This document shows, piece by piece, positions 5,199 through 51,832 of a DNA stretch of 64,000 nucleotides; within the stretch, counting starts at the first letter, position 1, and every line of letters begins with the position of its first letter. The notes beneath the pieces are model-generated. The model searched no databases. It was not told the DNA's origin and saw only the letters and a list, made by a program, of their open reading frames with translations. Source of the DNA: a virus (lineage: Duplodnaviria; Heunggongvirae; Uroviricota; Caudoviricetes). The position numbers and the translations under genes were made by a program. The stretch spans positions 197,424 to 261,423 of IMG/VR virus record IMGVR_UViG_3300021166_000052. One strand, 5' to 3'.

Positions 5199-5199
5199 C

Positions 5200-7159: not shown

Positions 7160-7184
7160 ACCTTAGATAAAAAAATTAAACAAG

Positions 7185-8624: not shown

Positions 8625-8627
8625 TTG

Positions 8628-8686: not shown

Positions 8687-8707
8687 TATTTTAAAGGAGA
8701 TAAATAA

Positions 8708-9067: not shown

Positions 9068-9092
9068 TGAAATAATAATGAAAGTGTGAAAA

Positions 9093-9614
9093 ATGATTAC
9101 ATTAGCAACAACATGTGGTATCTTTATTATAAATAAATTCAAACAAATACTTACATGTCATCCAACGGGTCATCATCCATTGCAATTGGATATACCAAAA
9201 GGATGTTTAGATCGAGGAGAAACTGTGTCTCAATGTGTTGTTAGAGAACTGTTAGAAGAAACTGGGATTGATTATTATACATTACAGCGGCCATTAATAG
9301 ATATTAGTGCGATACATGGGACATTTATATATAAGCATAAGAAAAAACAATTATATACATTTATGTTACAACTAAATGACACAATAGATGTAACTACCTT
9401 GAAATGTACAAGTATGGTTACGAGTGTACCCATTCCATTTCCAGAAGTAGATTCTTTTGCATGGATAGAATATAACGAAAGAGAGTTGCTACATGAATCT
9501 CAGCAACGTGCCATAGAAGTAATTAATGATCAATATAATATATTTGATTTACATTCATCCAAAGATGAAAATACTCAATATATAACAATTTCTAAAAGTA
9601 ATAATTATGGTTAA
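9093..9614 (+). CDS. Nudix hydrolase
   Basis: Canonical Nudix box GCLDRGETVSQCVVRELLEETGI (G-x5-E-x7-REUxEExGU). Confidence 0.7.
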   Translation: MITLATTCGIFIINKFKQILTCHPTGHHPLQLDIPKGCLDRGETVSQCVVRELLEETGIDYYTLQRPLIDISAIHGTFIYKHKKKQLYTFMLQLNDTIDVTTLKCTSMVTSVPIPFPEVDSFAWIEYNERELLHESQQRAIEVINDQYNIFDLHSSKDENTQYITISKSNNYG

Positions 9615-9642
9615 ATAAAAAATAATAATATTTCAAATATAT

Positions 9643-9676
9643 AGCCAGCACTTAATAGTGCTGGCTATTTTTTTTG
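9643..9676 (+). terminator. rho-independent terminator (agccagcac / gtgctggct stem plus T9)
   Basis: 9-bp GC-containing stem, 6-nt loop and a T-run directly after the Nudix gene. Confidence 0.6.
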
Positions 9677-9714
9677 TAATTAATTAATAAAAGTCAATAG
9701 TATAGGGACATTTA

Positions 9715-11343
9715 ATGTTAAGATATCAGCCTAAATATAATGTTAATGTAGATTCAACTGGATCTGGGGATTCTACAACAATAAATTTAATAAACGCGGG
9801 TAATGTTTAGGTAACAAATATTACATCTGGGGGTATTGTTTCTTCTAAAACATATATTCCCAATACTGTCCCTGCTAATTATATTTTAACTGCTGCTACA
9901 ACAGATCATCAAACTGTAACAATATTTTTTATTGCAGAACCTACAACATTATAGTCTCCAACTATTACAGTAGATGGAATAACGTGTACTAATTTAACAC
10001 AATATGCAGATGATAGACGATTATTTTCAGGGTCTGTTACAATAACAGTCGCATCATCAAAAACGGTTACACTAACTTCGAATACAGGGAAAAGTACAAC
10101 TGTTCAAGTCAATCGAGCCGCAATGGCCCCAACTATAACCGATATCAGATTTATTAATGGATATCCGGGTACTCAAACCGAAGTTAAACAAAATGATACA
10201 TTGACAGTTCGTGTAACATTTGATCCAGCAGGAACTGCCCCCACCCAAATAGATGTTATGGATTATGGTATATCACAATCTAAGACAGTTTTAACATCTT
10301 CAACTGAATTATCATAGGGAACAGTTCACACCGCCACATTTACAATATCCACAAAATATGTAGGCAACACTGCCCAATTATTACCTATACAATTACGAGC
10401 AAGAAATTTATTTGGTACTGCTAGTAATTATATAATTTCCAATGTATATGGTACTACGGAAACTATACAGGTAATGAAAGGATGTGATTTAGTTCCTACT
10501 ATTACTGTTAATGCCACTACATACCCATCGGGGCAGGGAGCTTTTAAAAATACAGAATCTGGTAACATAAATGTTACTATTTCTAATTATACAGGTGTTA
10601 CATATTCTTCTCCAAATGGAAATTTTACAATTACATCTCCAACTATATATGCTGCGTCAAAAACTATAACTTGTACTCATCCCGGAACATATAATGATTC
10701 TGTAAATAATATTAGAGTTGTAGCTACTCGTTCTGCAAATGCAACTTCTACAACAGCAAATTTCATAGTAGAAGTTGCAGATATTGCGCCTACTGTGAAT
10801 GTATATCATTCTGAATCATATTTAAGATCTACTGAAGCCGGTTACACTTATACTATATATGCTACTAGTAATCAAAATCTATTATCAGCCCCATCTTTTA
10901 ATATACCAGTTTCTGGTATATAGGTTGCTGGTGCATTTACTGGTTCTAATAAAAATTAGCAGCGAACAATATCTATTAGGGATAGTGATATAAAAGGAAC
11001 GGCTCCATAGAGTGCTACTATATTACCAACTAATAAAGCTAAAATTGATGCAATAATTACTGGAAACCAAATTGTTAGGGGATTTAGATCGAGAATTTTA
11101 CCATTACCTGCTTTTGGAACCAGTTGTACGTTAGGGACCGCTGTAACAAGTATTGCAAATTTAGTATTTTCATAGAGTTTTAAAACAGCTATGGCATATT
11201 CCCCAATTGGATCAGTTGCACCAATTGTAGGTGGATAGACTATTAGTGCATTAAATAATAATCCAACAACTATTTATATTTTAGATTCTCAGGCGGCGGC
11301 TGCTTCATCAGCGGCCAGCACAATAACTATAGAGGAAACATGA
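9715..11343 (+). CDS. virion/tail structural protein (TAG-recoded, ~9 in-frame TAG)
   Basis: Single frame from ATG 9715 to TGA 11341-11343. ORF-track pieces 10123..10317 and 10474..10923 are in the same frame. Thr/Ser/Asn-rich. No TGG seen in the long fragments. Confidence 0.55.
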
Positions 11344-11400
11344 TTAATATAAATAGTAAATATAATTAATTTAATAATATATTTAATGGGTTTGTAATAA

Positions 11401-12021
11401 ATGCCAACTACCGCCGAATTAGCATTCGAACTAGAACGCCGGATCATTGTTTTCCATAACGCAACATCTTTACCAGATGATACTCAATTAGGTTATATAG
11501 GTGATCCTAATAATGTTGTTAATGGTGCAACTGCTGGTCAAACTTTATTATATAATTGTCCATCTGGAACATTTTTTTTAGATAAATCACAAAATCCACA
11601 TGATATTTATCAAAAAGTACAAGATGGAGCCGGTGGATTATAGATTAAACATAATAGTTCAACTACTACAACCGGGACAATTGAATTTACTGATACAACA
11701 GTATTAGCATCTACTGATATCGGAGGAGGTAGAGTTGTAATAGTTTTTAATAATAGTGCAACATATGCGGATAACACAACTAATTATTTTGGCCAAATGG
11801 GAATTACATTAAATGCAGCATCAATTGGTGCAAGTTTAAAAGTTAGATTAGCTGGTATTATTGATGATGTAAGTTTTAATTTTATAAATGGTCCGTTATA
11901 TTTAAGTAATAATGGATTAATTACACAAGTAGAACCGATAACCAATGCTAGTGTAGTATTAGGTTATCCAAAAGATAACAAATCATTTTTATTTGATCCT
12001 CAGACAATTATAGAAAGGTAA
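11401..12021 (+). CDS. structural protein (1 in-frame TAG at 11641)
   Basis: Fragments 11401..11643 and 11797..12021 share a frame and are joined by one TAG. Ends in TAA. Confidence 0.5.
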
Positions 12022-12026
12022 ATTAT

Positions 12027-12533
12027 ATGGCTGATAAATATTTAAAGAACAATGGCGCTTCTTATAAAGAAGTAGGATTTTTAGTAACAAGTACTGGTGC
12101 AAGTGATGCTGGTAAAGGTGTTGGGTTGAATGCACAGGGCCGTCTGGACGAATCTTTGATGCCCGTGGGTCTTGGTGCGGATACTAAACAAATCGTGGCT
12201 GGCGAGGCTCTGGGTGCTGGTAATTACGTTAATGTTTATAGTGACTCAACAGTTTTTAAAGTCCGTAAAGCGGATGGAACTATTGAAGGAAAATTTGTCG
12301 ATGGCTTTGTATTGGCAGCATTTGCAGCCGATGATTTAGCAACTGTATACTTTGAAGGAACTAATAATCAATTAACCGGACAAGTTGCAGGGGATGTATT
12401 TTTAGCAACAACCGCAGGTGCTGGTACATCTACACCACCTAGCGCATCTGGAAATGTTGTTCAGCGAGTAGGTGTTGCAATTAGTCCAACTGAAGTTAAT
12501 TTTGAACGCGGAATGCCTACTGTATTAGCATAA
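12027..12533 (+). CDS. structural protein, Gly/Ala-rich
   Basis: Complete 168-aa ORF. No TAG and no TGG. Confidence 0.5.
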   Translation: MADKYLKNNGASYKEVGFLVTSTGASDAGKGVGLNAQGRLDESLMPVGLGADTKQIVAGEALGAGNYVNVYSDSTVFKVRKADGTIEGKFVDGFVLAAFAADDLATVYFEGTNNQLTGQVAGDVFLATTAGAGTSTPPSASGNVVQRVGVAISPTEVNFERGMPTVLA

Positions 12534-12559
12534 TCTTTGTTTTTTTGGTTTAAAAAATA

Positions 12560-13285
12560 ATGGCACGTAAACGACCACTAGCAATATACAATGGTATACT
12601 TAGAGAAATTAACAAAGGAGATACACTACCGCCTGATGTTTTAACGGATACTATCTCTTTTGGTAATGGGGTTGAAATAGTACTATCACAACACGGTGAT
12701 AGTACTTCAACCACCTTCACTCTATCTCGTCCTGTTGAGAAAGTATTAGTTGCTGTTAATGGTTTATTACAAACAAATTATATTCAACCAAATGGAACAG
12801 ATCAATTAGTATTAGGATTTACACCTGCATCCGATGATTTAATTATTGCATATTGTTTTGGCGAAACTACCACAACAGGAATAGCAACACTTAATCGCGT
12901 TTTGGATACAACTACTGATGGAACTACTAGTAATTATACATTAGATACCACTGCATATAATGTGATGGTTTTTTTAGATGGTATATTACAATATGATTTT
13001 GTTCATGGAAACGATTCTGATTATTTATATTTAGGATTTGTGCCAATAGCTGATAAAAAATTACAAGTATATTCTGTAGTTGGTGGTATAAAAGGACCAA
13101 AGGGTGATAAAGGTGAACCCGGTGAAGCGGCGGATCACGGCTTATTAACAGGACTTGGTGATGATGATCATCCCCAATATTTAAATGAAAGCCGTGCTGA
13201 TGAAATTTATATCAGATTAGATAATACTGATATTGGAGTAGACACTAGTTATCATCATATTCAATCAATATCATTGGATACGTAG
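12560..13285 (+). CDS. tail fibre protein with short collagen-like Gly-X-Y segment
   Basis: GPKGDKGEPGE triplet repeat. An upstream domain repeated in gene 14985..15926. Ends at TAG 13283-13285. Reading through would run about 150 nt further to TGA, so the end is uncertain. Confidence 0.5.
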   Translation: MARKRPLAIYNGILREINKGDTLPPDVLTDTISFGNGVEIVLSQHGDSTSTTFTLSRPVEKVLVAVNGLLQTNYIQPNGTDQLVLGFTPASDDLIIAYCFGETTTTGIATLNRVLDTTTDGTTSNYTLDTTAYNVMVFLDGILQYDFVHGNDSDYLYLGFVPIADKKLQVYSVVGGIKGPKGDKGEPGEAADHGLLTGLGDDDHPQYLNESRADEIYIRLDNTDIGVDTSYHHIQSISLDT

Positions 13286-13437
13286 TATATTGAACATAAT
13301 TTAAATAAATATCCTTCCGTAGTTATAATTGATTCATCTATGGATAAGGAAGAAGTATATGGAACAATAAAACATATAGACTTAAATAGACTTAATGTCT
13401 ATTTCTCATCAAACTTTACTGGAGAGGCATACTTATC

Positions 13438-14967
13438 ATGAAATTTTTAAATAATATTAATCTAACATTAAATGAAATCCAAAATGTAAAATTACATAAT
13501 CTAGGATCGGCACCTACTGGTTATGAAGGTTTAATTTACTACGATACCGCATTAAAACGTACCGGCGTTTATATGAATAGCACCTAGAAGTATTTTGTAA
13601 CATATGATTTACTAGGTGCTGCTTCTGGTGTTGCAACCCTGAATGCAAGTTCATTAGTGGTTCAAAATCCAGCAAGTGCTGCTTCTACATCAGGCGGAGC
13701 CGCTGGAGTTATCCCAATTACCCCCGCTGGTGGTAGATTAGACGGTTCATTTATTCCGCTATTAAATAATATACCAGCACCAACTGGGGCGGTATCGTTA
13801 AATTCACAAGCTATTACTAATTTAGCTAATCCTACCAATCCTCAAGACGCTGCTACTAAAAATTATGTAGATTCTGCTGTACAGGGACTTGATACTAAAG
13901 CATCTGTTCGTGTTGCAACTACGGGTGCTATTACTTTAACAAATACTCAAACAGTTGATGGTGTTTCATTAATTGTAGGTGATAGAGTATTAGTAAAAGA
14001 TCAAGGAACAGCTTCTGCTAATGGTATTTATATAGTATCTGCTACAGCATAGACAAGAGCTACTGATGCTGATTCGTGGAATGAATTAGTTGCAGCATAT
14101 GTGTTTATTGAAGAAGGTACAACTTATGCAGACACTGGTTAGGTTTGTACCGTTGATGCTGGTGGTACACTTGGAACAACTGATGTAACATTTGCTCAGT
14201 TTTCTGCCGCCGGTACTGTAACTGCTGCCAATGTAGGGGCAGGAACTGGTACTATCTTTAGAGATAAAACAGGAAATGTAATCAATTTAAAATCTATTGC
14301 CGCTGGTTCTACTAAATTAAGTATTACTAATAATGCAGATAATATTACATTGGATGTTAATGAAGCAAACTTAGTATTTGCTAATATGACATCTTCTGGA
14401 ACATTAGCTGTTGCAAAAGGTGGTACTGGAACTACTACTTCAACTGGTACTGGTTCTGTTGTATTATCAAATTCACCTGCATTAGTTACGCCAACTTTAG
14501 GAGTAGCAACTGCTACATCTATAAATAAGGTAACTATTACTGCTCCAACATCAGGAGCTACATTAACTATTGCAGACGGTGCAACATTATCTACTGCTGG
14601 ATCATATACTTTAATGTTAACTGCTACTGGAGCAACAAATGTAACTTTTCCGACATCTGGTACATTGTTAAGCACAGCAGCAGCAGTAACAGTTGCACAG
14701 GGTGGTACAGGTTCAACTACAGCGGCTGGAGCTAAAACTAATTTAGGTTTTATGACTCGTTATTCTGCTGACATTGGTAATGGTTCATTGACTACTATTC
14801 CAGTTGTACATGGTTTGAGTACATTAGATGTTCAAATTACGGTATATGAAAAAGCTGGAAATTCTGTAGTGTATCCTGATATTATGTTAACTGATGCTAA
14901 TACTGCTTCAATTGTATTCTCAGTAGCTCCAACTGTAAATCAATATAGAGTAGTTGTAATAGGATAA
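13438..14967 (+). CDS. tail fibre protein (conserved phage tail-fibre N-terminal domain; 3 in-frame TAG)
   Basis: The segment VRVATTGAITLTNTQTVDGVSLIVGDRVLVKDQGTASANGIYIVSATA(TAG)TRATDADSW...ADTG(TAG)VCTVDAGGTLGTT..FAQFS matches a widespread phage tail-fibre domain. An AKGGTG...TNLG motif lies downstream. Frame is continuous through fragments 13657..14052 and 14350..14967. Confidence 0.65.
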
Positions 14968-14984
14968 TTAAAGGAGATTGACTA

Positions 14985-15926
14985 ATGCCTAAAATATTGG
15001 GACAGACGGAAGTAGTTGGTAGTTTAACGGCTACTTCCGTCAATGGTATTACTGGTTTAAATTCCAACGATGGTACAATTCAACCAAATGGTAGTGTAGC
15101 AGACGCTGGTATATCTAATTATGCAGCAAGGGCAGATCATGTTCATGTTGGTGGTATCGGTGGCGGTGCGTCTTATTTAAATGATTTACTTGATGTCAAC
15201 ATTAGTTCTGTTGCAGATGGAAATGTATTATTATATGATTCAGATACTACCAATTAGGTTAATGTGGTATCAAATATAGAAAGTATCGAAACTGTTTTAG
15301 ATACTACAGGAAATGGAACTACTACATTTACTTTATCTAAAGCGGTTGGTAAAGTATTAACTACAATAGATGGTATAGTTCAAAGAGATTTTACACAACC
15401 AAATGGTACAAATCAGTTAGTTTTTGGTTTTATACCAGATACAACAGAAAATGTTACAGCATATAGTTTTAATAATATATCAGTAGGCGGTGGTGGAGGA
15501 GCTAGTACATTAGATGAACTAACTAATGTTAATGCTCCATCTCCAACTGAAGACCAAATATTATCATAGGATTCTACGAGCGGCCAGTAGATTGCAAAAA
15601 CATTAGTTATTGGTGATGACACATCTGGTATAGTTTTATCAGAAATTGGAACTGCTACTATAAATTTCGGTGATTAGCCCGGTCAAAATGAAGCCACAAT
15701 TATATTAGATACATTAACTAATATAACATCTACTGCTAAAATTACAGCATAGATAACCGCTGATTCTACATCGGAAGATCATTCAGAGAGTGACCACCGA
15801 TATTTAGCATTATTTACAAAATTAGTTTGTACATCTCCGATTGCTGGTGTTGGATTTACTATATATTGTATATCAGAACATAAATTAGAAGGACATTTTA
15901 CTATCAATTAGGCATAGACTGATTAA
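14985..15926 (+). CDS. tail-fibre-like protein (7 in-frame TAG)
   Basis: Frame 0 is continuous from ATG 14985 through TAG 15255, 15567, 15588, 15675, 15750, 15909 and 15915 to TAA 15924-15926. Shares a domain with 12560..13285. Confidence 0.5.
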
Positions 15927-15939
15927 GAGGAGATGAAAC

Positions 15940-16707
15940 TTGCCACCATATAAAACATATATTAGAGAGTAGGATTGTAAGCCACCATCACATATACCAA
16001 TTAGAACAGATAATCATTAGTCTACACAAGGATTAGTTTATTGTAATATGTTTAATGAATCGTTAATGGAAAGTATTTCTGGGGTTGTTGGTGATCCAAC
16101 TGGTAATATAATAACACCAGATGGTGTAAGATTTACTGAAGATACTGATAGATTGGTATATCCACCACATATAAAACCTATGCAACTAAATCAAACTAGC
16201 ACTGTTATTGTAACTACTAAATTTGATGTTAAAAAATAGACACCAAATATGAAGTTATTAGCTGTTGATGGTAATGACATTACATTTTATAATTTAGGAA
16301 AATATATTTATTTGGATTTTTATTATGCTGGCAACGCTTCTGTTATTGCTTATAATGATAGTTATAATAAGTAGACGCAATGGATTTCTATACGGGCCGC
16401 TACTTATAAAAGTATATATATAAATTGTGAAATGGCAACGCAAGTAATGGATATGAATGGTGGGTATATTAATTCAACATCTAGTATGACATTTGGTAAT
16501 AGTGTTATAGATGATAGTAATCCATTTAAAGGTACTATTGGATATATGTTAGTTTATAATAGAACTCTTACTGAAAGAGAAATGACACTATTATAGCAAA
16601 ATCCATATCAAATGTACGAACCCGAAGTATTGTATATTGACCAAGAAAGACCATATAATTATCAAATCACTAAAACAAACCGAAGTAAAATATTTAATTT
16701 AAGTTAA
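15940..16707 (+). CDS. LamG/concanavalin-like jelly-roll protein (paralog 1; TTG start; 5 in-frame TAG)
   Basis: AAGAGGAG RBS 7 nt upstream of TTG 15940. C-terminal FKGTIGYMLVYNRTLTEREMTLL resembles the LamG fold. N-terminus parallels gene 17114 (YKxYIxE(TAG)DxKPP...H(TAG)S). Confidence 0.4.
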
Positions 16708-16718
16708 AGGGAATAAAA

Positions 16719-17114
16719 ATGGCATAGTCTAATAAAACGACCCTCACTGGAGTTGGGGCCGAATTAAGTGAGATCACAAATATTGATGCTAATTATGTAG
16801 ATGTTAATCATTATACTGAGTGGGTAACATTAAACCCCGGTGAAATTGCAGATTTAGAAATTAATGTGGTTTTTGGTGCAGGTGGAACCGATGTTTGGTA
16901 CAGAGTTGTGAAAACATTAGATGAAACTTCTGAAGCTCCACAAAATATACCATATATAGCAGGAGTATTTGCATATTCATCTAGTGGCAATTATAAAAAA
17001 TCAGTAGTAATATCTAATTGTTATAAATTTAGAATCGAATTTAGAAAAGGTGGAACCACTGCTGGTACATATACACCTTATGTATATATGAGAAAGAATG
17101 GTGTGTCTGTGTAA
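16719..17114 (+). CDS. small structural protein (1 in-frame TAG)
   Basis: ATG 16719. Fragment 16866..17114 is in the same frame. Stop TAA overlaps the next ATG (gtgTAATGg). Confidence 0.4.
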
Positions 17115-17914
17115 TGGCGGCATATAAACAATATATTAAAGAATAGGATACTAAACCTCCATCTGGTACAAAATTAAGAACCGATGGCCATTAGTCTGTT
17201 AAAAATCTAGTATATTGTAATACATTTAATGATTCATTTACAGAAAGTGTCAACGGAATAATTGGTACACCTTATGGTAATATATTAACACCAGATGGTG
17301 TTTGTTTTACAAATGATACTGATAAATTAGTATATCCAGCTAATACATTTAAAATGTTAGGTTCACTAATTGGCCCCTATACAATTTTATTTTCGTTTAG
17401 ACCACCAGATATATATCAAACAGAAGCAAATTCATATATTATTGGCAACGGATCACAAGAAATAGCTTTATTTTAGGTAGGCCCATCTACATTTAATATG
17501 GATTTTACAATGGGACTATCATCATTAAATCAATTAAATACGGCTCTACATTACGACCAATAGCAACACTGGCAATTAATACGTACATTACAGGGAACAA
17601 TATCATTTTTAAATGGTGTTATGATAGAAGCATCAGACGAACCGGAGTATGGTGATATAATAACTACAAATCCATAGATTTTTGGTAATAATAGCACAGA
17701 TACAGGGGTATTTAAAGGAACAATCGGGTATTTTTATATTTATAACACTGATTTTGTTAATTATCATACCCCGACATAGGAACTAGATTCTTTATAGAAA
17801 AATCCATACCAGATGTTTGAATCAGAAGTATTATATATTGATCAAGAAAAACCAAAAATGTATAATATAACTGAAACTAATAGATCACAAAATTCGATGT
17901 TAATTGGTTAGTAA
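17114..17914 (+). CDS. LamG/concanavalin-like jelly-roll protein (paralog 2; ~8 in-frame TAG)
   Basis: Read by eye in frame 2 from ATG 17114 to TAG-TAA at 17909-17914. N-terminal 60 aa are about 60% identical to gene 15940. C-terminal FKGTIGYFYIYN motif. Confidence 0.4.
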
Positions 17915-17957
17915 TGTTAATAAAATAAATTAATTATTAAATATAAGGTTTTGAAAA

Positions 17958-18275
17958 ATGATTCCAAAAATAGAAGATAGAGATTATAAATATCAAGGTA
18001 ACAATATTTGTAGTATTTTTGCTACTTTAAATATATATGCTGATGACAACACAACTATCGTAGATAGTGTAAAGTTACAAGCAAATTTTGATATATCTGA
18101 TGTAGATAATGTTGTTGCGTTTGCAACCGAACAATTATCATCACAAGTAATGGATTATATGTCAAAATTAGTTTATATTGATAATTTAAGAAAACAGATA
18201 TTTCCAACGTCAATAGACTTTAAAGACGCAATTAATTCTATATTAGATCCAATTCAAGCATCACTTGTTGGATAA
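17958..18275 (+). CDS. hypothetical protein
   Basis: Complete 105-aa ORF. Confidence 0.45.
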   Translation: MIPKIEDRDYKYQGNNICSIFATLNIYADDNTTIVDSVKLQANFDISDVDNVVAFATEQLSSQVMDYMSKLVYIDNLRKQIFPTSIDFKDAINSILDPIQASLVG

Positions 18276-18309
18276 TATAATAAAATAAGAAATAAATAGG
18301 AGATCAAAC

Positions 18310-19776
18310 ATGTCATTAGATACAACAATTAAAGGATCGACAACTGGAAATGGTGCAGAAGTTGATTCTGTTCATAGATTAAAAGTAAACTTAGCAACCG
18401 GTGATGTACCAGCGGAAGTGGGCGGGGTACGCAATTTTTCCGAAGTAGATCCCGGTACACGAACAGGCTCTCCTTTATTACGATCAAATGAAGTTAGTAT
18501 GGATTATCGAGCTAGAGTTGGAACTGATACTGTTCTATTTAGTGATATCTTTAATGCTGGTGCCCAAAATATTAGTTTATATAAATGTGCATTCACCACA
18601 ATGACATTAACTCAATCTGCTGGATTTTTGAATATAAATGCAGCGGGAACATCTACAGTATCTGGTAACTATGCACAATTACAAACATAGAGATATTTTC
18701 CTTTGATTGGAACATCGCCACTCGCTGTAGAATTTGTAATAATGGTTGATAGATATCCAGTTGCAAATGAAACATTTTTATGTGGTTTGGGCGTAGCGAA
18801 TGCTGCAAATGAACCAATTGATGGTGTGTAGTTTGAATATACTGATGCTGGATTGAAGGGTTGTCAAAAATATAATAGTGGCGTTACTGATAAAGTACTA
18901 TTAATGAATGCTAATGAATTAACTTTTAATACTACTAAAAAATTTGTATTAGTTGTTAGTTATGATAAAATAGAATTTTAGATCAATGATATTTTATATG
19001 GTACATTAAATAGAGATGCTGCAACTGGTATACCGTTTATTACTGGGGCATTACCATGGTTTTGTACTAAATATAATAATGCTGTAATTGGAACATCTCC
19101 AAATATGAAAGTAATGATTGCTAATGTAAATATTACTTTAATGGATATTTCCTCTAATATGACATAGAGTGGCCAGATGGCCAGTGCTGGTCTTGTTATG
19201 CAGCAGATGAATGGTGGTACTGCTGGTTCCCCACAAGTCCAATGGGCTAATACTGCATTACCTACAGCAGCAGCAGCAACAAATACTACAGCGGCATTGG
19301 GGGCATTTTTAGGAGGTATTTTCCAAATGAACGCTCCTGCAACATCCGCAACTGATATTATTATAGCTAGTTATTTAAATCCAGTCGGTGGCGTTGCACA
19401 GACTCCACGAACAATTAAATTAAGAGGAATTAAAGTAGATTGTGTTAATGCAGTTGTTGCTGTTGCCACAACAGCTACTACATTTGCAGTAGCTGTAGCA
19501 TAGGGTGGAACAACTTTAACATTAGCAGCCACTGAATCTGCAAGTTTCGCAACTGCAACTGTCAAAGCTCGTAGAATACAACCAATTGGTGTAATAACAT
19601 TCCCGATTGCATCACCGGTAGGATATGCAGCATCGCCAATTCAGTTCGATTTTGAAGCACCACTTCTTATAAGTCCGGGTGAGTATGTTCAAATAATAGC
19701 AAAACCACTAATTGGAACAGCGACATCAACTGAAGTATTTCAATGGATTATATCACCAAATTTGTATTGTGAATAA
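18310..19776 (+). CDS. large structural protein (5 in-frame TAG)
   Basis: Fragments 18310..18690 and 19177..19503 are in the same frame. Continuous to TAA 19774-19776. Ala/Thr-rich. Confidence 0.5.
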
Positions 19777-19795
19777 TATTGTGGTATATTGATAT

Positions 19796-20278
19796 ATGAA
19801 ACAAAAAATAAGTAAATCTATAATTAGAGACTTATCTGAAGCAGCATCGGTTGTACTTATAAATGATAGTACAACCGATGCTGCTTGGTATCCTATAGTA
19901 GCATCAATATCATCTGGTACTGTATCTAATATATATACAAGTTCTACTAAATTAACATTTAATCCCGCAACTGGAAATTTTAGTGCAACTCAATTTACGT
20001 CATTATCAGATAAAAAATTAAAAGAAAATATACAACCAATAGAAGATGCGCTTTATATAATAAATCAGTTAGAAGGTGTAGAATTTGATTGGAAAGATTC
20101 TAAAAATCATAGTTCTGGTTTAATAGCACAGGATGTAGAAAATATACTACCATTTTTAGTTGTTGAAACAGAAAATAAATCTATAAATTATAATGGTATT
20201 ATAGGATATTTAGTAAATGCTATCAATGAGTTACATCAAGAAGTTAATATATTAAAACAAAAACTAGAAGATAAATAA
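19796..20278 (+). CDS. short tail fibre/spike with C-terminal intramolecular chaperone autoprotease (peptidase S74) domain
   Basis: LSDKKLKENIQPIEDAL...LEGVEFDWKD...GLIAQDVENILPFLV is the classic S74 / endosialidase-chaperone signature. Confidence 0.7.
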   Translation: MKQKISKSIIRDLSEAASVVLINDSTTDAAWYPIVASISSGTVSNIYTSSTKLTFNPATGNFSATQFTSLSDKKLKENIQPIEDALYIINQLEGVEFDWKDSKNHSSGLIAQDVENILPFLVVETENKSINYNGIIGYLVNAINELHQEVNILKQKLEDK

Positions 20279-20280
20279 AG

Positions 20281-20844
20281 ATGGAAAATAGTAATTTTAT
20301 TGGTTACAATAATACTTATTATTGTAACTCTGACTTAGATTCAATTTATGTAACTGAACAATATATCATTGATAGATTTGGTGGTTTTAATTTGATGAGT
20401 TAGGGATGGAACAACGGTGGCCAACTAGGCTCAGAAAATATAGTAAATCGGTCTTCCCCAGTACAAGTGGGTAGTTTAACTAATTGGAAGTTGGTTTCAT
20501 GCGGAAGCTATTCAACATTTACATTAGCAATTAAAAATGATGGTACTTTATAGTCTTAGGGAAATAATAATGAAGGTCAATTGGGATTAAATGATACTAC
20601 CCCTTATTCTTCACCTGTACAAGTTGGAAGTTTAACTGATTGGAAGTTGGTTTCATGTGGATTATATCATACCATGGCAATTAAAACCAACGGAACGCTG
20701 TAGGCGTTTGGTTATCATGGTAATGGTGAATTAGGATTAAATGATATAATAAGTCGCTCTTCACCTACTCAAGTTGGTAGTTTAACAACTTAGAAAGATG
20801 TCTCCGCTGATTGGGGACAGACTGTGTTATTATTAAATGATTAA
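20281..20844 (+). CDS. RCC1-repeat protein (5 in-frame TAG, each at a conserved Trp position)
   Basis: Codon-checked single frame. Repeats of GTL(TAG)S(TAG)GNNNEGQLGLND..SSPVQVGSLTDWKLVSCG match the RCC1 consensus GTLWAWGxNxxGQLG. The third repeat has SLTT(TAG)KDVSA where the other repeats have SLTNWK / SLTDWK with TGG. Confidence 0.7.
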
Positions 20845-20896
20845 ATATATTTCTTGATATATATAGTTTTTATACTATACCATATGGAGATAATTA

Positions 20897-21448
20897 ATGA
20901 ACATAAACATCGGATCTGGTTATAAAAAATATAAAGATTACATAAACTTAGATGCTGATTTCAATTGTAATCCTGATATTTTATTTGATTTAGAAAATGA
21001 CATCTTCCCATTTGAAGACAGTTCTATTGATAAAGTAATAGCACATCATATTTTAGAACATATTGGAGATGGATATTTTCATGTTTTAAAAGAATTGTAT
21101 AGAATATGTAAACATGGAGCAATTATCGATATCCGCGCCCCACATCATAATCATGAAGTATTCCATAATGATCCAACCCATAAAAGACCCATCACAGTTG
21201 AAGGTATGCGTCTTTTTTCAAAAAAATATAATAAATATGAAATTGATAGAGGGGGATCTTCTTCTACACTCGGTATTATTTATAATATAGATTTTGAAAT
21301 TGTTGCATTTGATTATGTATATGATTCGTTTTATAATGAAATATTTAAAACAAACACCCAAACTCAAAATATTAGGTTATGTAGAGAGTTTATAAACACT
21401 ACATTAGAAACCCATATTATTATTACACCAATTAAGGACGTTATATAA
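20897..21448 (+). CDS. class I SAM-dependent methyltransferase
   Basis: N-terminal IGSG..Y.....N.D motif and overall Methyltransf_11-like pattern. No TAG. Confidence 0.55.
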   Translation: MNINIGSGYKKYKDYINLDADFNCNPDILFDLENDIFPFEDSSIDKVIAHHILEHIGDGYFHVLKELYRICKHGAIIDIRAPHHNHEVFHNDPTHKRPITVEGMRLFSKKYNKYEIDRGGSSSTLGIIYNIDFEIVAFDYVYDSFYNEIFKTNTQTQNIRLCREFINTTLETHIIITPIKDVI

Positions 21449-22788
21449 TGCATTTACAAACTATTATAGATTTTTTAAGTAAGGTCGATGAATTAGAAAC
21501 TGCTAAAATAATATTAACAACATTTTCTAAATATGCAAAAAATTTACAACAGTATGATGAGTTGGGTATGTTATTTGAAAAGATTAAAGACTATAATGAT
21601 TCAATAGCTATGCTAGAAAACTGTTTAAATATAGCAACATCAACAGAACAGTTATATTCAATTCGTGCAAATTTAGCAAAAGTGTATAATCATCTCAACG
21701 AACCTTATAAATCATTATTCTATTCTAACTTAAATTATGAATTAGTAAAGACGGATTATGATACTCAAATGGAACAGAGTTTTTCATACTATTTAATAGG
21801 TGATTTTAATAAATCATATCAAATACAATTAGACCTTTTGAATATTAATAATATATCAGATGAAATTCATAAAAAAATCCGTTTTAACATGGGAACATTT
21901 GAAATTGCAAATGGTGATTTTAAAAGTGGGATGAGGAATATTGTAGTCGGTGGTAAAGATATAGGAATTTGGAAATCTATAAATAGATTTTATGATAAAT
22001 GGGATGGAGGTGTAACCGATAAAACATTGTTAATATTTGCAGAAGGTGGAATCGGTGATGAAATTATTAATGTTAGATTTATGAGTGTTTTAAAAAATAA
22101 AGGTATAGATGCCATTTGGATTGGTCATAATATTGAATTGATTAATTTATTTCAAAGAAATGGATTTAATGCATGTTTAGAATCTAATATTGATCCACTA
22201 CAAGATTATGTATATTGTGAATCAATGATGTTATCAGTGTTATTAAATATAGAAGAATTTGAATTATATAACGGGTCATATTTTAAACCATCTCAACAAT
22301 ATATTGATAAGTGGAAGTTACTATTACCTGATAAATTTATTACTATTAAATGGTCAGGCAATCCATTTTATGATCATGATTTACATAGGACCGTCCCAAT
22401 TGATAGATTAATAAATACAATTAGAGAAAAAACTGATATACCCATTATTTCATTACAACTAGATGATACCGCTGGTATTCATAATGATTATATATTATAT
22501 GATATACAATCATGGGAAGATACATTAGCTATTCAATCATTAGCTAAATTAAATATTACATCTTGTACAAGTACCGCTCATACAGCATCTGCAATGGGAG
22601 TTGATTGTGTAGTTATTCCACCAATATGTACATACTTTCCATGGTTAAATTTAAATGAAAATCATACTAGTAAATGGTATGGAAAAACCACAAGAATATA
22701 TCCACAAACCAAATGGAAAGATTGGTCAGATCCACTTGAATATATTGCACAAGAATTATTATTATTAAATAAAACGGAGATTATATAA
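21448..22788 (+). CDS. putative glycosyltransferase (GT9/heptosyltransferase-like core with N-terminal helical extension)
   Basis: TLLIFAEGGIGDEIINVRF resembles the GT9 ILIIRxxxIGDVI motif. Weak. Confidence 0.35.
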   Translation: MHLQTIIDFLSKVDELETAKIILTTFSKYAKNLQQYDELGMLFEKIKDYNDSIAMLENCLNIATSTEQLYSIRANLAKVYNHLNEPYKSLFYSNLNYELVKTDYDTQMEQSFSYYLIGDFNKSYQIQLDLLNINNISDEIHKKIRFNMGTFEIANGDFKSGMRNIVVGGKDIGIWKSINRFYDKWDGGVTDKTLLIFAEGGIGDEIINVRFMSVLKNKGIDAIWIGHNIELINLFQRNGFNACLESNIDPLQDYVYCESMMLSVLLNIEEFELYNGSYFKPSQQYIDKWKLLLPDKFITIKWSGNPFYDHDLHRTVPIDRLINTIREKTDIPIISLQLDDTAGIHNDYILYDIQSWEDTLAIQSLAKLNITSCTSTAHTASAMGVDCVVIPPICTYFPWLNLNENHTSKWYGKTTRIYPQTKWKDWSDPLEYIAQELLLLNKTEII

Positions 22789-23574
22789 ATGAAAACTTTT
22801 TATTTTTTAGCGGGGTTGCCTCGATCTGGGTCAACTGTATTGGCCTCAATTTTAAATCAAAATCCGGGTATATATGTGACACCCACAAGCCCAATGTTAG
22901 ATTTATTGATAGCTAATCAAAATGCTTGGTATGATGCCCCATCGGTAAAAGCAAATCCTTTTCCAGAACAATTGACAAATATTACAAGGGCAATGATTGC
23001 TGCATCATGGCAACACCGACCCGAAAATATTATAATTGATAAAAATAGAGGATGGATGAAAAATATTGAAGCGTCTGAAATATTATTTAATAAAAAAGTT
23101 AAGATGGTTGTCACTACCAGAGATTTACCTAGTATAATGGCATCGTGGTTACGATTGATAAAAGATAACACTGACTGTTATTTTATAAGAATGCTAAAAG
23201 GTAAACATCTTAAAATTACAGATGATAGTATATTATCAGAAATGTGGTTTAATATGGTAAAAGATTGTATGGAAGGTTTAAAAAATGTTAAATTAATTGC
23301 ATCTGATAGGATACTCTTAATTGATTATGATAATTTTGTAAATAATCCATATGATATATTAAATAATATAACTACATTTTTAGAATTACCTATTTATAAT
23401 TATGACATTAATAATATTATAAATGATACTCATGATGATGATCTTACTGCGTGGGGTTTAGATGGTATGCACACAATACGGCCAATTTTACAAAAACAAT
23501 CAAATGATCCACGAATGTTATTAGGTGATCATTTATATAATAGATTTATTCATATAGAAAAACAATACAATTAA
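22789..23574 (+). CDS. sulfotransferase-family protein
   Basis: N-terminal GLPRSGSTVL matches the PAPS 5'-phosphosulfate-binding loop (PKSGTT-like) of sulfotransferases. Confidence 0.5.
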   Translation: MKTFYFLAGLPRSGSTVLASILNQNPGIYVTPTSPMLDLLIANQNAWYDAPSVKANPFPEQLTNITRAMIAASWQHRPENIIIDKNRGWMKNIEASEILFNKKVKMVVTTRDLPSIMASWLRLIKDNTDCYFIRMLKGKHLKITDDSILSEMWFNMVKDCMEGLKNVKLIASDRILLIDYDNFVNNPYDILNNITTFLELPIYNYDINNIINDTHDDDLTAWGLDGMHTIRPILQKQSNDPRMLLGDHLYNRFIHIEKQYN

Positions 23575-23603
23575 TTATATATAATTTTAATTAGGATGGT
23601 AGT

Positions 23604-24131
23604 ATGGCTGAACAACAAATTGATAAAAATGTACTTAAAAACTTACCCGATATATTACTTGATAATTTAATTGATGTGGATTCAAGTGGTGTATTAAGTG
23701 GCCAAATTTTAATTTATGATTCAACTTCAAACACTTAGAAAGCAGGAGAAAATTTAATTGATATATCATTTGAAGATATATCAAATATTGACCTAAGTGT
23801 ACCGCCCATAGATGGCCAAACGTTAATTTATGATGCTACTAGTGATAGTTAGAAACCCGGTGAAAATACATTTATATTATCATTAGATGATATTTCTGAC
23901 ATTGATTTAAGTGTCCCGCCAACTGAAGGTCAAATATTAAAATTTGATTCAACAAGTGATAATTAGAAAGCTGCTGATAATATAATTGAAATTGAATTAG
24001 ATGATATTTTAAATGTTGATTTAAGCGTTGCTCCGACAGATGGACAAATATTGATGTATGATTCAACATCAAACACATAGAAAGCCGGTGATGGTGGAGG
24101 CACTGGTATTTTAGATGGAGGTACATTTTAA
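23604..24131 (+). CDS. tail-fibre repeat protein (4 tandem ~40-aa repeats, each with one TAG)
   Basis: Four copies of DLSVPPxDGQxLxYDSTSxx(TAG)KAGE. Same repeat family as 943..2034. TAA overlaps the next ATG. Confidence 0.5.
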
Positions 24132-24343
24132 TGATTATAATTACAAAACATACACCAACCCCCGGAAAAGTTCCAACAAGTACAGATTTAGTTGTTGGTG
24201 AATTGGCAGTAAATACGAACGATAAAAAATTATTCACTAAACATACTGATAATAATATTATAGAGATTGGAGGTGGTTCCGGTGGAACTTCTGGTACATT
24301 TCCAGAAGTAGATTTATTACGAATGGCACTAGGAATAATTTAA
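24131..24343 (+). CDS. hypothetical small structural protein
   Basis: 70-aa ORF in an overlapping TAATG junction. Confidence 0.4.
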   Translation: MIIITKHTPTPGKVPTSTDLVVGELAVNTNDKKLFTKHTDNNIIEIGGGSGGTSGTFPEVDLLRMALGII

Positions 24344-24355
24344 TAGGTTAATTAA

Positions 24356-24733
24356 ATGGCAAGCAGTCCACAATATACAGCGATTCCTAAAGTAGGAATA
24401 GGAAAAATTTCAGTAGCAAATACTAGTTTAACTGGTACAGGAACACTTGTTAATGTTGTTAGTGCTGGTACAAATGGGTCAAGAGTTGATAGTGTAACAG
24501 TTAAGGCAACTACAACTACCACAAATGATATAGTACGATTATTTTTATATGATGGATCTATATATTCACTATTAACAGAAATATTAGTGTCGGCAATAAC
24601 AATAAGTTCAACTATAAAATCATTTGAAACTACCATTACATTGGGTATTGTTATTCCATCTGGTTATAGTTTATATGCATCAACTCATGTTGGACAGAGT
24701 TATAATATTCTTTCATTTGGCGGTGATTTTTAA
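24356..24733 (+). CDS. hypothetical structural protein
   Basis: 125-aa ORF. TAA overlaps the next ATG. Confidence 0.4.
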   Translation: MASSPQYTAIPKVGIGKISVANTSLTGTGTLVNVVSAGTNGSRVDSVTVKATTTTTNDIVRLFLYDGSIYSLLTEILVSAITISSTIKSFETTITLGIVIPSGYSLYASTHVGQSYNILSFGGDF

Positions 24734-26121
24734 TGAACTATGGTACATTTGGGTTTCCACTAAAACAAACTACATCGACATCATTAGCTGATTCATCATA
24801 GGCTACTGTTACATATGATTGGGTATCAGATGATAATTTTATTCCCGGTGATGTTGTTACAATGACCAAAGGATTAATAAAAAAACCGTTTTAGCCTTTA
24901 CCAGAATTATCAACTGTAACAGATACTGAATTATCTAAAATTACACATGCTGGTCAAGTGGGACTGGGCGCAGGTACTTCTATATGTAGTTTAAATAATG
25001 GTAACTATGCAACAATTGTTAATATGAGTTTTTGTATTTTCGATTATAATGATAGATTAATATCACAAGTAGCATTAGATATTTATGCGGCAGAGTATTC
25101 TGTGGTTAAACAATTAAGTGATGGTAATATATTAGCAGCGTAGTCAGCTAATGGTGCGCTTAAATTTATAATTTATAATACATCAGGGTCGGTTGTTGTT
25201 TCCGTTAAAACTATATTAGCTTCTGGTTCTCCAACTTATATAGATGCTGCTGTTTATAATGGTGGATTTTTAGTTTGTTATCGACCAGCCACCCCATATT
25301 ATCCAACTTATACTAGATATAATAATGCAGGAACTCAACAGCTTGCACCAAGAACAGTAGGAACGGCAGCTTGTACTTTTGCACATATAACAGTTTTATC
25401 AAGTGGTGATTATATATTATCATTTCTTGATACAACCGCTACTTTTGTTAAATAGCAACGGTATAATAGTTCAGATGTAGCACAGGGATCATTGACATCA
25501 TTAAATGCAATTGCTACTAGTGTGTTTGATGTTACCGCACAAAAAGATGGGGGCTTCGTGTTTGTTTAGAAAGCCACTGCTACTTATAATTTATATGTAG
25601 ATAAATATAATTCATCATTTACAAAAATAGTTACTTCATCATGGGTTTGTAAAGGAGAATCATCTGCTACCAGAGTATTAGATATAGAAGAAGCATATGG
25701 TACAAATGAAATATTGATAATATGTAGAGCAGAAACATCAGCAGGGGCTTATATAAGTAGATTAGAGCCAACTACATGTATTTTAATAAAAACCATTTAT
25801 AAAGTACAAAATGTTGGGTCGTATGCAAATATATGTGGCCTAACAAATGGTAATTATATATATACTTTCGGATTATCTGGGTCGGCTGCATTATATATAT
25901 ACAAACATGCAACTTATACTATAACTATATTAGGAATAGCAGAAAACGTTGCACCCACTGGAAATATAGTAACTGTGAGATTTCATGGAAATAATGCGAC
26001 TGATACAATCGTTCCGGCCAACGTCGATTATGGGACCGAGGCCAAACTATTTGATCATAGTTCGACAGGGGGATGTAGAGGAACGTTCATAAATAAAAAT
26101 TGTTTTTTACGAGGAATGTAA
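24733..26121 (+). CDS. structural protein (~6 in-frame TAG)
   Basis: ATG 24733. Fragments 24958..25143 and 25714..26121 are in the same frame. Confidence 0.5.
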
Positions 26122-38057: not shown

Positions 38058-38567
38058 ATGAATAAAGCTGATTTTCAACGATTACCTATAGGTTATAAAT
38101 ATTGTATGGATTGTTTTGGATTTACACCCCATACTAAAATAAATCAAAATGGTAACGATGTTTTTATATGTGATGTTTGTACTAATGAAATTGTTTGGTA
38201 CAATAATCCATGTGATTTATGTGGATATATTTTTGGAACTGAAGAAATATATGAACCCGATTATCACGAAGAAATTATTCATGGGGAAGGGTGCCATCTT
38301 AATACTAATCTTTTTGATTATACATTGCGTAGTTTTGTTGATAGTTTATCATATGAAGATCGGTTTAAATTATCTAATAAAATTAGATATGAAGAATCCA
38401 TTGAATGTGGTTGTAAATCGGTTGTAATCTTTCATAATAATCACAGAGTTGCATATCGGTCATGGTCAGTTTATTCGATGGATTGCATGAATGCAACGGA
38501 GTGGGAAGTTACAATGAAATGTCCTATTTGCGGTGAGTTATCAATATTTAGTGATGGTAGTTGTTAA
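38058..38567 (+). CDS. Cys-rich (multi zinc-ribbon) protein
   Basis: Multiple CxxC pairs. Confidence 0.4.
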   Translation: MNKADFQRLPIGYKYCMDCFGFTPHTKINQNGNDVFICDVCTNEIVWYNNPCDLCGYIFGTEEIYEPDYHEEIIHGEGCHLNTNLFDYTLRSFVDSLSYEDRFKLSNKIRYEESIECGCKSVVIFHNNHRVAYRSWSVYSMDCMNATEWEVTMKCPICGELSIFSDGSC

Positions 38568-38620
38568 ATATCAACAAAAAAATAAAGGTAAAACAATTGA
38601 AAAAAATTATAATTTAGACA

Positions 38621-39055
38621 TTGGGTTTGTTGGGATTATGTGTTAATGCAAACGCCACAATATCAACTAATACTCAATGTGGTTATGTATGTAATGTCGA
38701 AACAACCTATCAAGAAATCAGAACACTTGTTTATAAAAAAGTTATACATAATGATGATAAATCATTTGAGGATATGATTAACTCTCTACCACCCCCATCA
38801 GCGGGGCCGGGAAGTAAATTTCTTCAAAATAACATACCCAAACATAATGAATTACATGATTGTAAAAATTATCAAGATTGGGATAAATTATCACAAGAAA
38901 TAGCTAGTGGTGTTGACAACGGTTATAAAATGATTAATAATAAACTATTCACTAATTCTGGGAAAAGATATTTAAGGTGTAATGATCCTGATAATGTATT
39001 TTCAAAATATATTCAAAAATATCCCGATCTAGTCGATAAACGACCAGAAAAGTAG
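38621..39055 (+). CDS. hypothetical protein
   Basis: 144-aa ORF. Confidence 0.35.
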   Translation: MGLLGLCVNANATISTNTQCGYVCNVETTYQEIRTLVYKKVIHNDDKSFEDMINSLPPPSAGPGSKFLQNNIPKHNELHDCKNYQDWDKLSQEIASGVDNGYKMINNKLFTNSGKRYLRCNDPDNVFSKYIQKYPDLVDKRPEK

Positions 39056-39261
39056 GAAGAGTTTATACCAATATTACAAATAAGTTGGGTTGCTATTGAA
39101 AAGTAGGTATGTTATTATATATGTACACCACGCGATCATCCTTCCCATTGTGTTCCTCCTCCAACCCAACCTGTACCAGAGGGATCTACTATGATACTTT
39201 TTGGAATCGGTATATTGGGTTTGCTTGGTATATATAAATCTAAAAAATAATAGAGTATAAA

Positions 39262-50725: not shown

Positions 50726-50943
50726 CAAGGGGAGAATTACTTGATTTATTAACCGTATATGCAAAAGATTATCATATTAACGCGGCAGAAACAATTGCCC
50801 GTAATGATCATATGAATAATTTAAAAGGTGTCCCAGTTCATACTGATGTAATTGACGCAGTTTTGGTGGATTTTATTAATTATATCGGTGTGAAAAATTG
50901 TATCGATTATGCACTTTACACATCTGATTTAACTAAAAAATAA
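50722..50943 (+). CDS. hypothetical protein
   Basis: 73-aa ORF. Confidence 0.4.
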   Translation: MTRGELLDLLTVYAKDYHINAAETIARNDHMNNLKGVPVHTDVIDAVLVDFINYIGVKNCIDYALYTSDLTKK

Positions 50944-51014
50944 CCGCTGATATAATTAATATCATATAACAACGTATATACGGAGTTAATTAAAATTAAA
51001 ATAGGTAATAATTT

Positions 51015-51752
51015 ATGCAAACCATTAAATACCGATAGACCCCCGATACACCCGATTTTAGAGATTATTCATATTCAATTAAATCAGTAACAATTCCCGA
51101 TAGAGTAGATTTACGATCATTATGTTCTCCCATTGAAGATCAATCATCATTGGGTAGTTGTACGGGCCAAGCTATCGTCGGCGCATTAGAAATTTTAGAA
51201 AATAAAAATAAATCTAATTTTGTTGATTTATCAAGATTGTTTGTATATTACAACGAACGAATGTTGGAACGGACCATTTTGATAGACGCTGGTGCAACAC
51301 TTCGAAGTGGTATTAAAACCATGGCAATTTATGGTGTTTGTAATGAAACGCTATAGCCGTATGATATTTTAAAATTTAAGCGCAAACCTACCACCAAATG
51401 TTATAAAGACGCTACACAAAGAAAAATTACATCATATTATCGTTTAAATACTTTAAATGATAAATTAAATTGTTTAGCATCTGGATACCCATTTGTATTT
51501 GGGTTTATGGTGTATGATTCGTTTGAAACTGAAGAAGTTACATCGACCGGTTATATGAGTATGCCTAATATTACCGATAAAGCATTGGGGGGCCATGCGG
51601 TTTGCGCGGTTGGATATGATAAATTAAAAAAATTATTTATTATAAGAAATTCATAGGGTAAAAACTGGGGCGACTGTGGCTATTTCTATATGCCATTTGA
51701 TTATGTCACAAATAATAATTTATCGGATGATTATTAGCAAATTGTAAAATGA
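51015..51752 (+). CDS. papain-family (C1) cysteine peptidase (4 in-frame TAG)
   Basis: Codon-checked frame 0 from ATG 51015 to TGA 51750-51752. VDLRS / IEDQSSLGSCTGQAIVGALE matches VDWR...QGSCGSCWAF, the catalytic Cys region. GGHAVCAVGYD matches the catalytic His. IIRNS(TAG)GKNWGDCGY matches IKNSWGxxWGxxGY. TAG codons at 51036, 51354, 51654 and 51735. Confidence 0.7.
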
Positions 51753-51832
51753 AAAGGTAATAAATTACTTGATATTGAGTTAATTATGGGGTATATATAC
51801 TTATTCAATTAACTCAATATTAAGGATTTTTT

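Follow-up and report, generated by a model that had tools for sequence, protein, structure and literature searches.

In-frame TAG codons at conserved tryptophan positions in a phage papain-family peptidase gene

The subject of this study is a 64-kb window (64,000 nucleotides, positions 197,424 to 261,423 of IMG/VR virus record IMGVR_UViG_3300021166_000052, Caudoviricetes), and within it an open reading frame (ORF) at 51015-51752 on the plus strand, which comprises 245 sense codons, including four in-frame TAG codons, followed by a TGA stop at 51750-51752. The analysis of this ORF and of the other genes in the window indicates that the gene is intact, that TAG stands for tryptophan (Trp), and that the recoding is confined to a class of genes; these three statements taken jointly are held with very high confidence at the least. 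The recoding acts at the level of the codon and is specific to gene class. On the evidence of the alignments, UAG must be read as Trp for the protease and many virion proteins to be made.

The peptidase gene and its TAG codons

The protein encoded by the ORF, with its TAG codons masked, matched the Pfam family PF00112 (Peptidase_C1) over residues 27-227 at 53.9 bits against a cutoff of 20.7 (E=3.4e-14), and also matched phrog_16701, 'peptidase' (E=3e-23). The nearest solved structure was that of xylellain from Xylella fastidiosa (3OIS, E=1.2e-54), of which chain residues 33-286 were aligned with residues 6-243 of the query. The initial annotation of this stretch had described a papain-like C1 peptidase with four TAG codons; this identification was borne out, with a catalytic set at papain spacing, and the coordinates, the strand and all of the motifs quoted were exact. 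The coding sequence, its catalytic codons and its TAG codons are listed below, with the residues found at each TAG column among 120 aligned homologues.

51015..51752, plus strand: coding sequence of a xylellain-type short C1A (papain family) cysteine peptidase, 245 residues with TAG read as Trp (assigned from the translation, PF00112 and 3OIS)
51141-51143, plus strand: Gln43, six residues before Cys49, as in papain
51159..51161, plus strand: codon (TGT) of the catalytic Cys49, at papain spacing
51594-51596, plus strand: His194 (in GGHAV), at papain spacing
51648-51650, plus strand: Asn212, at papain spacing
51036..51038, plus strand: in-frame TAG, codon 8 (KYR-TAG-TPD); column Trp in 118/120, Tyr in xylellain
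51354..51356, plus strand: in-frame TAG, codon 114 (NETL-TAG-PYD), at the aromatic position of the YPY/WPY motif; column Trp in 116/120, Trp in xylellain, Tyr in chymopapain
51654..51656, plus strand: in-frame TAG, codon 214, the NSWG Trp (equivalent of papain Trp177); column Trp in 120/120, with NSWG aligned in xylellain and chymopapain
51735..51737, plus strand: in-frame TAG, codon 241 (DDY-TAG-QIVK), not the stop; column Trp in 120/120, DDFWVI in xylellain

The alignment was made with MAFFT from the 120 best (53-68% identical) of 7,387 matches obtained at E<=1e-10 in a search of 5.8 billion proteins. Read with TAG as Trp, the peptidase agreed with the family at all 77 columns that were at least 95% conserved, and Gln43, Cys49 (in a GSC context), His194 and Asn212 all lie in columns of this kind. 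The family has exactly five conserved Trp columns, of which the gene writes four as TAG and one as TGG. The initial annotation had placed one TAG on the NSWG tryptophan; that column was Trp in every homologue, and the Asn-Ser-Trp-Gly motif is present only if codon 214 is read as Trp. Its placing of another TAG at the aromatic position of an E..YPY-like motif was also correct, this position being Tyr in chymopapain and Trp in xylellain and in the present subfamily. The masked Peptidase_C1 alignment which it had proposed as a check gave the above-cutoff match already described, and the TAG columns, with Trp in 116 to 120 of the 120 homologues, included no non-Trp column. Xylellain itself has Trp at three of the four sites and Tyr at the first. 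From the column of codon 241 onwards the homologues run W-x-I-x-K, with four to five more residues after the Trp to the same end as the peptidase; since the C-terminus set by the TGA coincides with the ends of the homologues, the TGA is the true stop.

Judged by these comparisons, the gene is intact and not a pseudogene, is under purifying selection and needs Trp at UAG. The closest homologues, 67-68% identical, come from unrelated, AT-rich phage contigs and write each of their Trp residues as TGG, so the TGG to TAG changes arose in the present lineage. No synteny with the window was observed for the contigs of these closest homologues (L001-L003), phage NCTB or a further contig (L004), each of which had one or two genes in common with it. 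Proteolytic activity is predicted for the putative peptidase from its family and its catalytic residues, and, as the protease lacks a signal peptide, its site of action is probably intracellular. The role in lysis or maturation proposed in the initial annotation is hypothetical. In Alicyclobacillus phage MMB025 a C1 domain 30% identical to the peptidase forms the N-terminus of a 753-residue protein annotated as an endolysin, in lysis position (47982-50243), which is a weak hint, by analogy, that C1 domains can serve in phage lysis proteins.

TAG codons and gene classes across the window

The use of TAG for Trp is, from the alignments of several proteins, a property of the genome and not of one gene. 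In the RCC1-like protein (20281-20844) all five TAG sites were aligned with Trp, in 15-17 of 15-18 local alignments to a 60%-identical relative on a standard-code contig (L006), and the canonical WG that the UVR8 and RCC1 structures show in the RCC1 repeat is among these sites. The protein at 18310-19776 had Trp at five of five TAG sites in 16/16 IMG/VR relatives (48-64% identical), and three of the four aligned TAG sites of the protein at 14985-15926 were mostly Trp; the residues tallied at the TAG sites of these two alignments were 93 Trp, 3 Phe, 2 Tyr, 2 Thr, 1 gap and no glutamine (Gln). Over the 18 TAG sites of the four families compared with close homologues, Trp made up about 97% of the aligned residues and Gln was absent. 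The claim of the initial annotation that UAG stands for Trp is thus strongly supported by the peptidase and three further families. For the tail-sheath-like protein (9715-11343), which was aligned with a 33%-identical jumbo-phage homologue, Phe or Tyr was found at five of the six covered TAG sites and Gly at one. None of the relatives retrieved was recoded.

Codon counts agreed with the alignments. Fifteen genes, mostly virion genes, have at least two in-frame TAG codons each, 82 in total, and in the 76 other genes no in-frame TAG was observed in 13,705 codons. TGG made up 0.42% of the codons in the TAG genes and 1.17% (161 TGG codons) in the 76 TAG-free genes, while Gln codons were equally frequent in both. 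The share of Trp codons written as TAG was 4/5 (80%) in the peptidase, like that of the virion genes (82/103). Out of frame, TAG was similarly frequent in the two gene classes (1.6-1.9%) and TGG was not depleted; the effect is limited to the reading frame, which excludes a cause at the level of DNA or sequencing. ORF coverage of the window was 0.77 with the standard code, 0.90 with TAG as a sense codon and 0.82 with TGA as a sense codon, and the number of plus-strand bases in ORFs rose from 46,950 to 57,672 when TAG was treated as sense. No shared sequence context was found around the 82 TAG codons, and no editing or readthrough signal. TGA terminates about one quarter of the genes in the window, including the peptidase, while TAG is hardly or never a terminator anywhere in it. 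The window fits neither code 15 (TAG as Gln) nor code 4 (TGA as Trp); the assignment equals that of NCBI table 32 (UAG as Trp, with UAA and UGA as stops), and no membership of the phage in that plastid lineage is claimed. Single TAG codons near the ends or starts of otherwise TAG-free ORFs (37412, 44442, 45810-46007 and 57663) could be genuine TAG terminators or reflect mis-set starts. Another contig (L010) was suggested by ORF coverage to be a second recoded phage, and was rejected as the TAG codons at its ORF ends are real stops.

All of the window genes except one lie on the plus strand. Two features concern the other TAG-containing genes.

943..26121, plus strand: block holding most of the TAG-containing genes (tail-sheath-like, fibre/decoration, LamG and RCC1-like), with TAG-free metabolic islands interspersed
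38561..39250, plus strand: second TAG-containing gene outside the virion block, with three TAG and two TGG codons, whose secreted product has a Sec signal peptide and a tail that matches the PEP-CTERM model TIGR02595 (17.8 bits; cutoff 16)

The peptidase lies 25 kb past the last TAG-rich virion gene, amid TAG-free enzyme genes, and the proposal of the initial annotation that recoding extends beyond the structural modules was thereby upheld. Its description of the surroundings as free of TAG was accurate for 46021-57532, where every ORF except the peptidase lacks an in-frame TAG, and did not hold for 38561-39250 or for six ORFs of the non-structural part. Five of these have a single in-frame TAG each (37058-37438, 44172-44447, 45810-46007, 57621-58448 and 60749-60973), and ORF 44408-44632 has four within its first seven codons. 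The TAG-free genes encode enzymes, namely those of nicotinamide adenine dinucleotide (NAD) salvage, NUDIX hydrolases, a CoaE-CoaD fusion, RNase H, three RNA ligases, radical-SAM proteins and a secreted SLT transglycosylase. Third-position composition did not separate the peptidase from either gene class.

The spacers that flank the peptidase measure 71 nt upstream and 80 nt downstream, and the downstream one holds a hairpin with a U6 run. The elements identified around the gene are listed below, together with the positions of a sequence motif found at TAG-rich units.

50929..50961, plus strand: promoter-like element with a weak -35 (TTAACT), a 16-nt spacer and a perfect extended -10 (TGaTATAAT, 50948-50956), by sequence match
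50951-50961, plus strand: TATAATTAATA motif overlapping the extended -10 of the peptidase, which likewise occurs 30-40 nt ahead of TAG-rich transcription units
51768..51832, plus strand: terminator-like inverted repeat of 18 bp (51768-51785 and 51807-51824) followed by a U6 run, by folding
907-915, 9677-9689, 11361-11371, 17927-17935, 23569-23577 and 50951-50961: AATTAAT[AT] or TATAATTAAT motif, a candidate late-promoter element

As RNA, the downstream hairpin had a predicted folding energy of -25.2 kcal/mol (z=-6.4), and none of 200 shuffled sequences was as stable. These elements set the peptidase apart as a unit of its own, which has a -10-type promoter element and a terminator-like hairpin. 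Strong sigma70-type promoters, defined as TTGACA and TATAAT separated by 16-18 nt with at least 10 of 12 positions matched, precede TAG-free genes in 16 cases out of 16 (for example at 8628, 26175, 30595, 54771 and 62336), and none was found before a TAG-containing gene. The core AATTAAT[AT] was present 30-62 nt upstream of the TAG-rich units at 943, 9715, 11401, 17958/18310 and 23604, and upstream of the peptidase. Its association with TAG-rich units (Fisher p ~0.02) was chosen post hoc and concerns small numbers. The motif is under-represented overall (19 matches against 39 expected), and with one mismatch allowed it is noise (102 matches against 84 expected), so that only the exact form is a lead. 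The promoter data fit a late class of promoters with a -10 element only, and early transcription would also be compatible with them.

The parent contig is 276 kb long (276,095 bp), of which the window represents 64 kb, and a JGI protein encoded on a contig of 276,095 bp has the same sequence (100% identity) as a TAG-free TPR-like window protein of 446 residues. Annotated relatives of the tail-sheath-like protein, about 30-35% identical, are confined to jumbo phages (phiKZ-like, PaBG, Noxifer and NCTB). The PEP-CTERM protein suggests a Gram-negative host with an exosortase. The sole convincing minus-strand gene (27999-28385) is located in a 662-nt gap where both GC and AT skew flip. Inside the TAG-rich block, a TAG-free module at 20897-23574 (methyltransferase-like, the TPR-like 446-residue protein and sulfotransferase-like) is common to the standard-code 159-kb phage contig L006 at 57-63% identity, and is probably a horizontally exchanged surface-modification cassette. 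Genes of auxiliary metabolism were found at 5956-9614 and 51833-52918, including a nicotinamide phosphoribosyltransferase (7185-8624) and two NUDIX proteins, and the dephospho-CoA kinase/phosphopantetheine adenylyltransferase fusion is directly downstream of the peptidase. RNA ligases are encoded at 26237-27322, 48250-49269 and 59295-59927 (one of them T4 Rnl1-like), together with an HD-domain protein at 60070-60822, and this RNA repair set is unusually rich for 64 kb.

Alternative explanations and the decoding of UAG

The in-frame TAG codons might be read as nonsense mutations in a decaying pseudogene, as Gln codons or as errors in the data. A DNA probe for NSWG with TAG gave no match in IMG/VR, 10 in metagenomes and 5 in species genomes; the nine matches that encode a C1 peptidase all represent nonsense at one site or pseudogenes. 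Sporadically, then, the NSWG codon alone is TAG, in nine C1 peptidase genes of unrelated metagenomes and metagenome-assembled genomes, several of which have frameshifts or have lost residues, catalytic ones among them; however, these genes keep their other Trp codons as TGG, and they are a background level of ordinary nonsense decay. In the present gene, four of four stops are TGG to TAG changes at conserved Trp columns, an outcome with p ~2.6e-7 for four random single-base nonsense changes, and there is no TAA, TGA or frameshift among them. The conserved columns and the whole catalytic set are intact, the in-frame TAG codons of 14 other genes behave alike, and decay of the gene is therefore given a negligible likelihood. 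Reading as Gln, under code 15, has in its favour that this is the only TAG reassignment described for phages and the one that annotation pipelines assume. The alignments contradict it, as Gln was found at none of the 18 tallied sites (4+5+9, in the four families), and Gln at NSWG would disrupt a conserved active-site residue; the TAG genes are also depleted 3-fold in TGG, with Gln codons equal in the two gene classes. This reading is considered highly improbable. An artefact of sequencing or assembly, or the reading of a modified base as A within TGG, has virtually no probability, since only frame 1 of a part of the genes is affected and the out-of-frame TGG and TAG frequencies are unaltered.

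Other alternatives accept Trp and concern its source. If the host itself read UAG as Trp, the phage would merely mirror the code of its host, without temporal gating, and the scarcity of TAG as a terminator in the window is in agreement with this. The partition of the genes would then be without reason, as 76 genes with 161 TGG codons have no in-frame TAG; the TAG-free genes carry host-type sigma70 promoters, the probes of 185,579 species genomes gave only single-site pseudogenes, and no bacterium in which UAG is Trp is known. A recoded host is therefore regarded as very unlikely. Alternatively, there may be no suppressor tRNA gene, with the transcripts edited (A-to-I, giving UIG read as UGG) or UAG read by a reprogrammed host tRNA-Trp or ribosome. 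Editing of UAG to UIG, read as Trp, is known at the amber/W site of hepatitis delta virus, the window lacks a suppressor tRNA, and it encodes RNA-modifying enzymes (RlmN/Cfr-like and MiaB/RimO-like proteins and the three RNA ligases). Against this, the 82 sites are without shared sequence context, no deaminase was identified among the annotated window proteins, the RNA-modifying enzyme matches are below their family cutoffs, and only 64 of the 276 kb was searched for tRNAs. Editing or reprogramming of this kind is thought quite unlikely.

The preferred explanation, which as a whole is judged probable, is that the window comes from a jumbo phage with two coding regimes. About three quarters of the genes are compatible with the standard code, with no in-frame TAG and in many cases a strong sigma70-type promoter; the second class, mostly virion proteins and including the protease, has about 80% of its Trp written as TAG. 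Decoding of UAG would fall to a dedicated tRNA that has the anticodon CUA, accepts Trp and has its gene elsewhere in the 276-kb genome; a phage tryptophanyl-tRNA synthetase (TrpRS) or interference with release factor 1 (RF1) may assist it. If this suppressor were available only after the early genes, the TAG genes, including the protease, would be translated only late. With a TAG as early as codon 8, not even a truncated protease would be made before the late phase, and the active form would need Trp at all four TAG codons, including that of NSWG, which adjoins the catalytic Asn. Late gating of the TAG genes by a tRNA is somewhat favoured; for the peptidase, the TAG share typical of virion genes, the lack of a strong sigma70-type promoter and the early TAG at codon 8 point to it. 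The data agree with the proposal of the initial annotation that the enzyme may be a late one whose translation depends on the availability of a suppressor. A precedent for the gating of late genes by recoded stop codons has been described (Borges et al., bioRxiv 10.1101/2021.08.26.457843).

Several observations weigh against this explanation. No tRNA with anticodon CUA was found by ARAGORN or Rfam in the 64-kb window (of 276 kb), of which the only tRNAs were tRNA-Leu(UAG) and tRNA-Ser(GCU), and no TrpRS or release factor was found in the same 64 kb. The perfect extended -10 at the peptidase might be used early by the host RNA polymerase. The TAG-containing gene at 38561-39250 overlaps its TAG-free upstream gene by 7 nt, so that TAG use does not strictly follow operons. 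The secreted SLT-domain lytic transglycosylase (27315-27968), likely a lysis or cell-wall enzyme, is free of TAG and has two TGG codons; not all lysis-type genes are recoded. The simplest route to a UAG-reading tRNA from tRNA-Trp is that of the Escherichia coli amber suppressor su+7, in which the anticodon CCA is changed to CUA; this tRNA-Trp(CUA) is charged mainly with Gln in E. coli, as U35 is an identity element of glutaminyl-tRNA synthetase (GlnRS). A simple suppressor would thus not be trivially sufficient, and the phage would have to possess a TrpRS of its own, a tRNA that escapes GlnRS, or some other device. The same charging logic has been used to explain why phages show only TAG to Gln and TGA to Trp reassignments (Borges et al., bioRxiv 10.1101/2021.08.26.457843).

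It is also conceivable, though unlikely, that no ordinary suppressor tRNA is involved and that the phage reprograms host decoding to UAG as Trp late in infection, either by editing of the charged host tRNA-Trp (CCA to CUA) or by radical-SAM modification of tRNA or rRNA. Reprogramming of host decoding, if true, would be a mechanistically new way to switch the genetic code. In a less extreme version, there may be a natural tRNA-Trp(CUA)/TrpRS pair which works in bacteria without Gln mischarging. Two TAG-free genes in the window encode proteins similar to RNA-modifying enzymes, namely an RlmN/Cfr-like radical-SAM RNA methyltransferase (41951-42907; TIGR00048, E=1.8e-19) and a MiaB/RimO-family methylthiotransferase-like protein (62399-63448; TIGR00089, E=3e-17), both below the curated cutoffs, and the latter adjoins tRNA-Ser(GCU) at 62155-62242. 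RlmN/Cfr and MiaB/RimO-type enzymes modify tRNA position 37, rRNA or ribosomal protein S12. A role of these two proteins and the three RNA ligases as decoding accessories is speculative.

Comparison with known recoded systems

In the searched literature, which does not cover all journals, no precedent for a phage with UAG reassigned to Trp was found, and the only such reassignment was that of Balanophora plastids. A double-TAG DNA probe for the RCC1-like gene gave no match in IMG/VR. The stop codon recodings described in phages so far are TAG to Gln, TGA to Trp and TGA to Gly, and the leading model explains this restriction by the tolerance of the various host synthetases for suppressor anticodons (Borges et al., bioRxiv 10.1101/2021.08.26.457843). 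A phage in which TAG is written for Trp breaks this rule, and the implied tRNA/synthetase solution, which avoids Gln mischarging, would be of direct interest for genetic-code expansion. Annotation with Prodigal-gv or Pharokka-gv (code 15) would fragment such genes or put Gln at their Trp sites, including the active-site Trp of the protease. The presence of a lone recoded protease amid TAG-free neighbours means that codon choice follows gene class and not position in the genome, and in-frame TAG may mark late expression in uncultured phages.

The window resembles code-15 phages (Lak megaphages and crAss-like phages; Borges et al. 2021/2022; Peters et al. 2022, PMC9523058) in that in-frame TAG is concentrated in structural or late genes, early genes can be read with the standard code, genes avoid ending in TAG, and coding density increases with TAG as sense; a role in timing the translation of late genes has been proposed for both. 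It differs from them in the amino acid, which is Trp and not Gln, in that no Sup-CUA tRNA or release factor 2 was seen in the 64 kb, and in its lineage, that of an AT-rich jumbo phage with a distantly phiKZ/PaBG-like tail sheath. Phages with TGA to Trp (code 4; the Agate and Jade phages of Borges et al.) also use a stop codon as Trp in late or lysis genes, and some of them encode a TrpRS and a release factor as a code-change operon; the codon, however, is another one, and in the present window TGA is a working stop with little gain in ORFs when treated as sense. In its architecture the recoding corresponds to that of code-15 and code-4 phages, but its assignment of UAG to Trp differs from theirs.

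The assignment is shared with the plastid code of the Balanophoraceae (table 32, UAG to Trp), and a very AT-rich genome favouring drift from TGG to TAG is common to both. The Balanophora reassignment, described as exceptionally rare, depends on a tRNA-Trp(CUA), RF1 having been lost. It is a fixed, genome-wide reassignment in an organelle whose plastid RF1 has been lost, whereas in the phage it is an overlay specific to a class of genes, in a host that presumably terminates at UAG. Unlike su+7, which is mostly mischarged with Gln, the phage system must avoid mischarging, and its alignments show Trp and not Gln.

Xylellain-type short C1A peptidases are already known to have been transferred into Caudoviricetes (PMC10380794). 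The present protease is like xylellain (3OIS) in its similarity over the full length, its short N-terminal segment, its catalytic residues and its lack of a signal peptide, and differs from its xylellain-type homologues in that they use TGG throughout while the phage gene has TAG for four of its five Trp codons. The protease itself is an ordinary member of this group.

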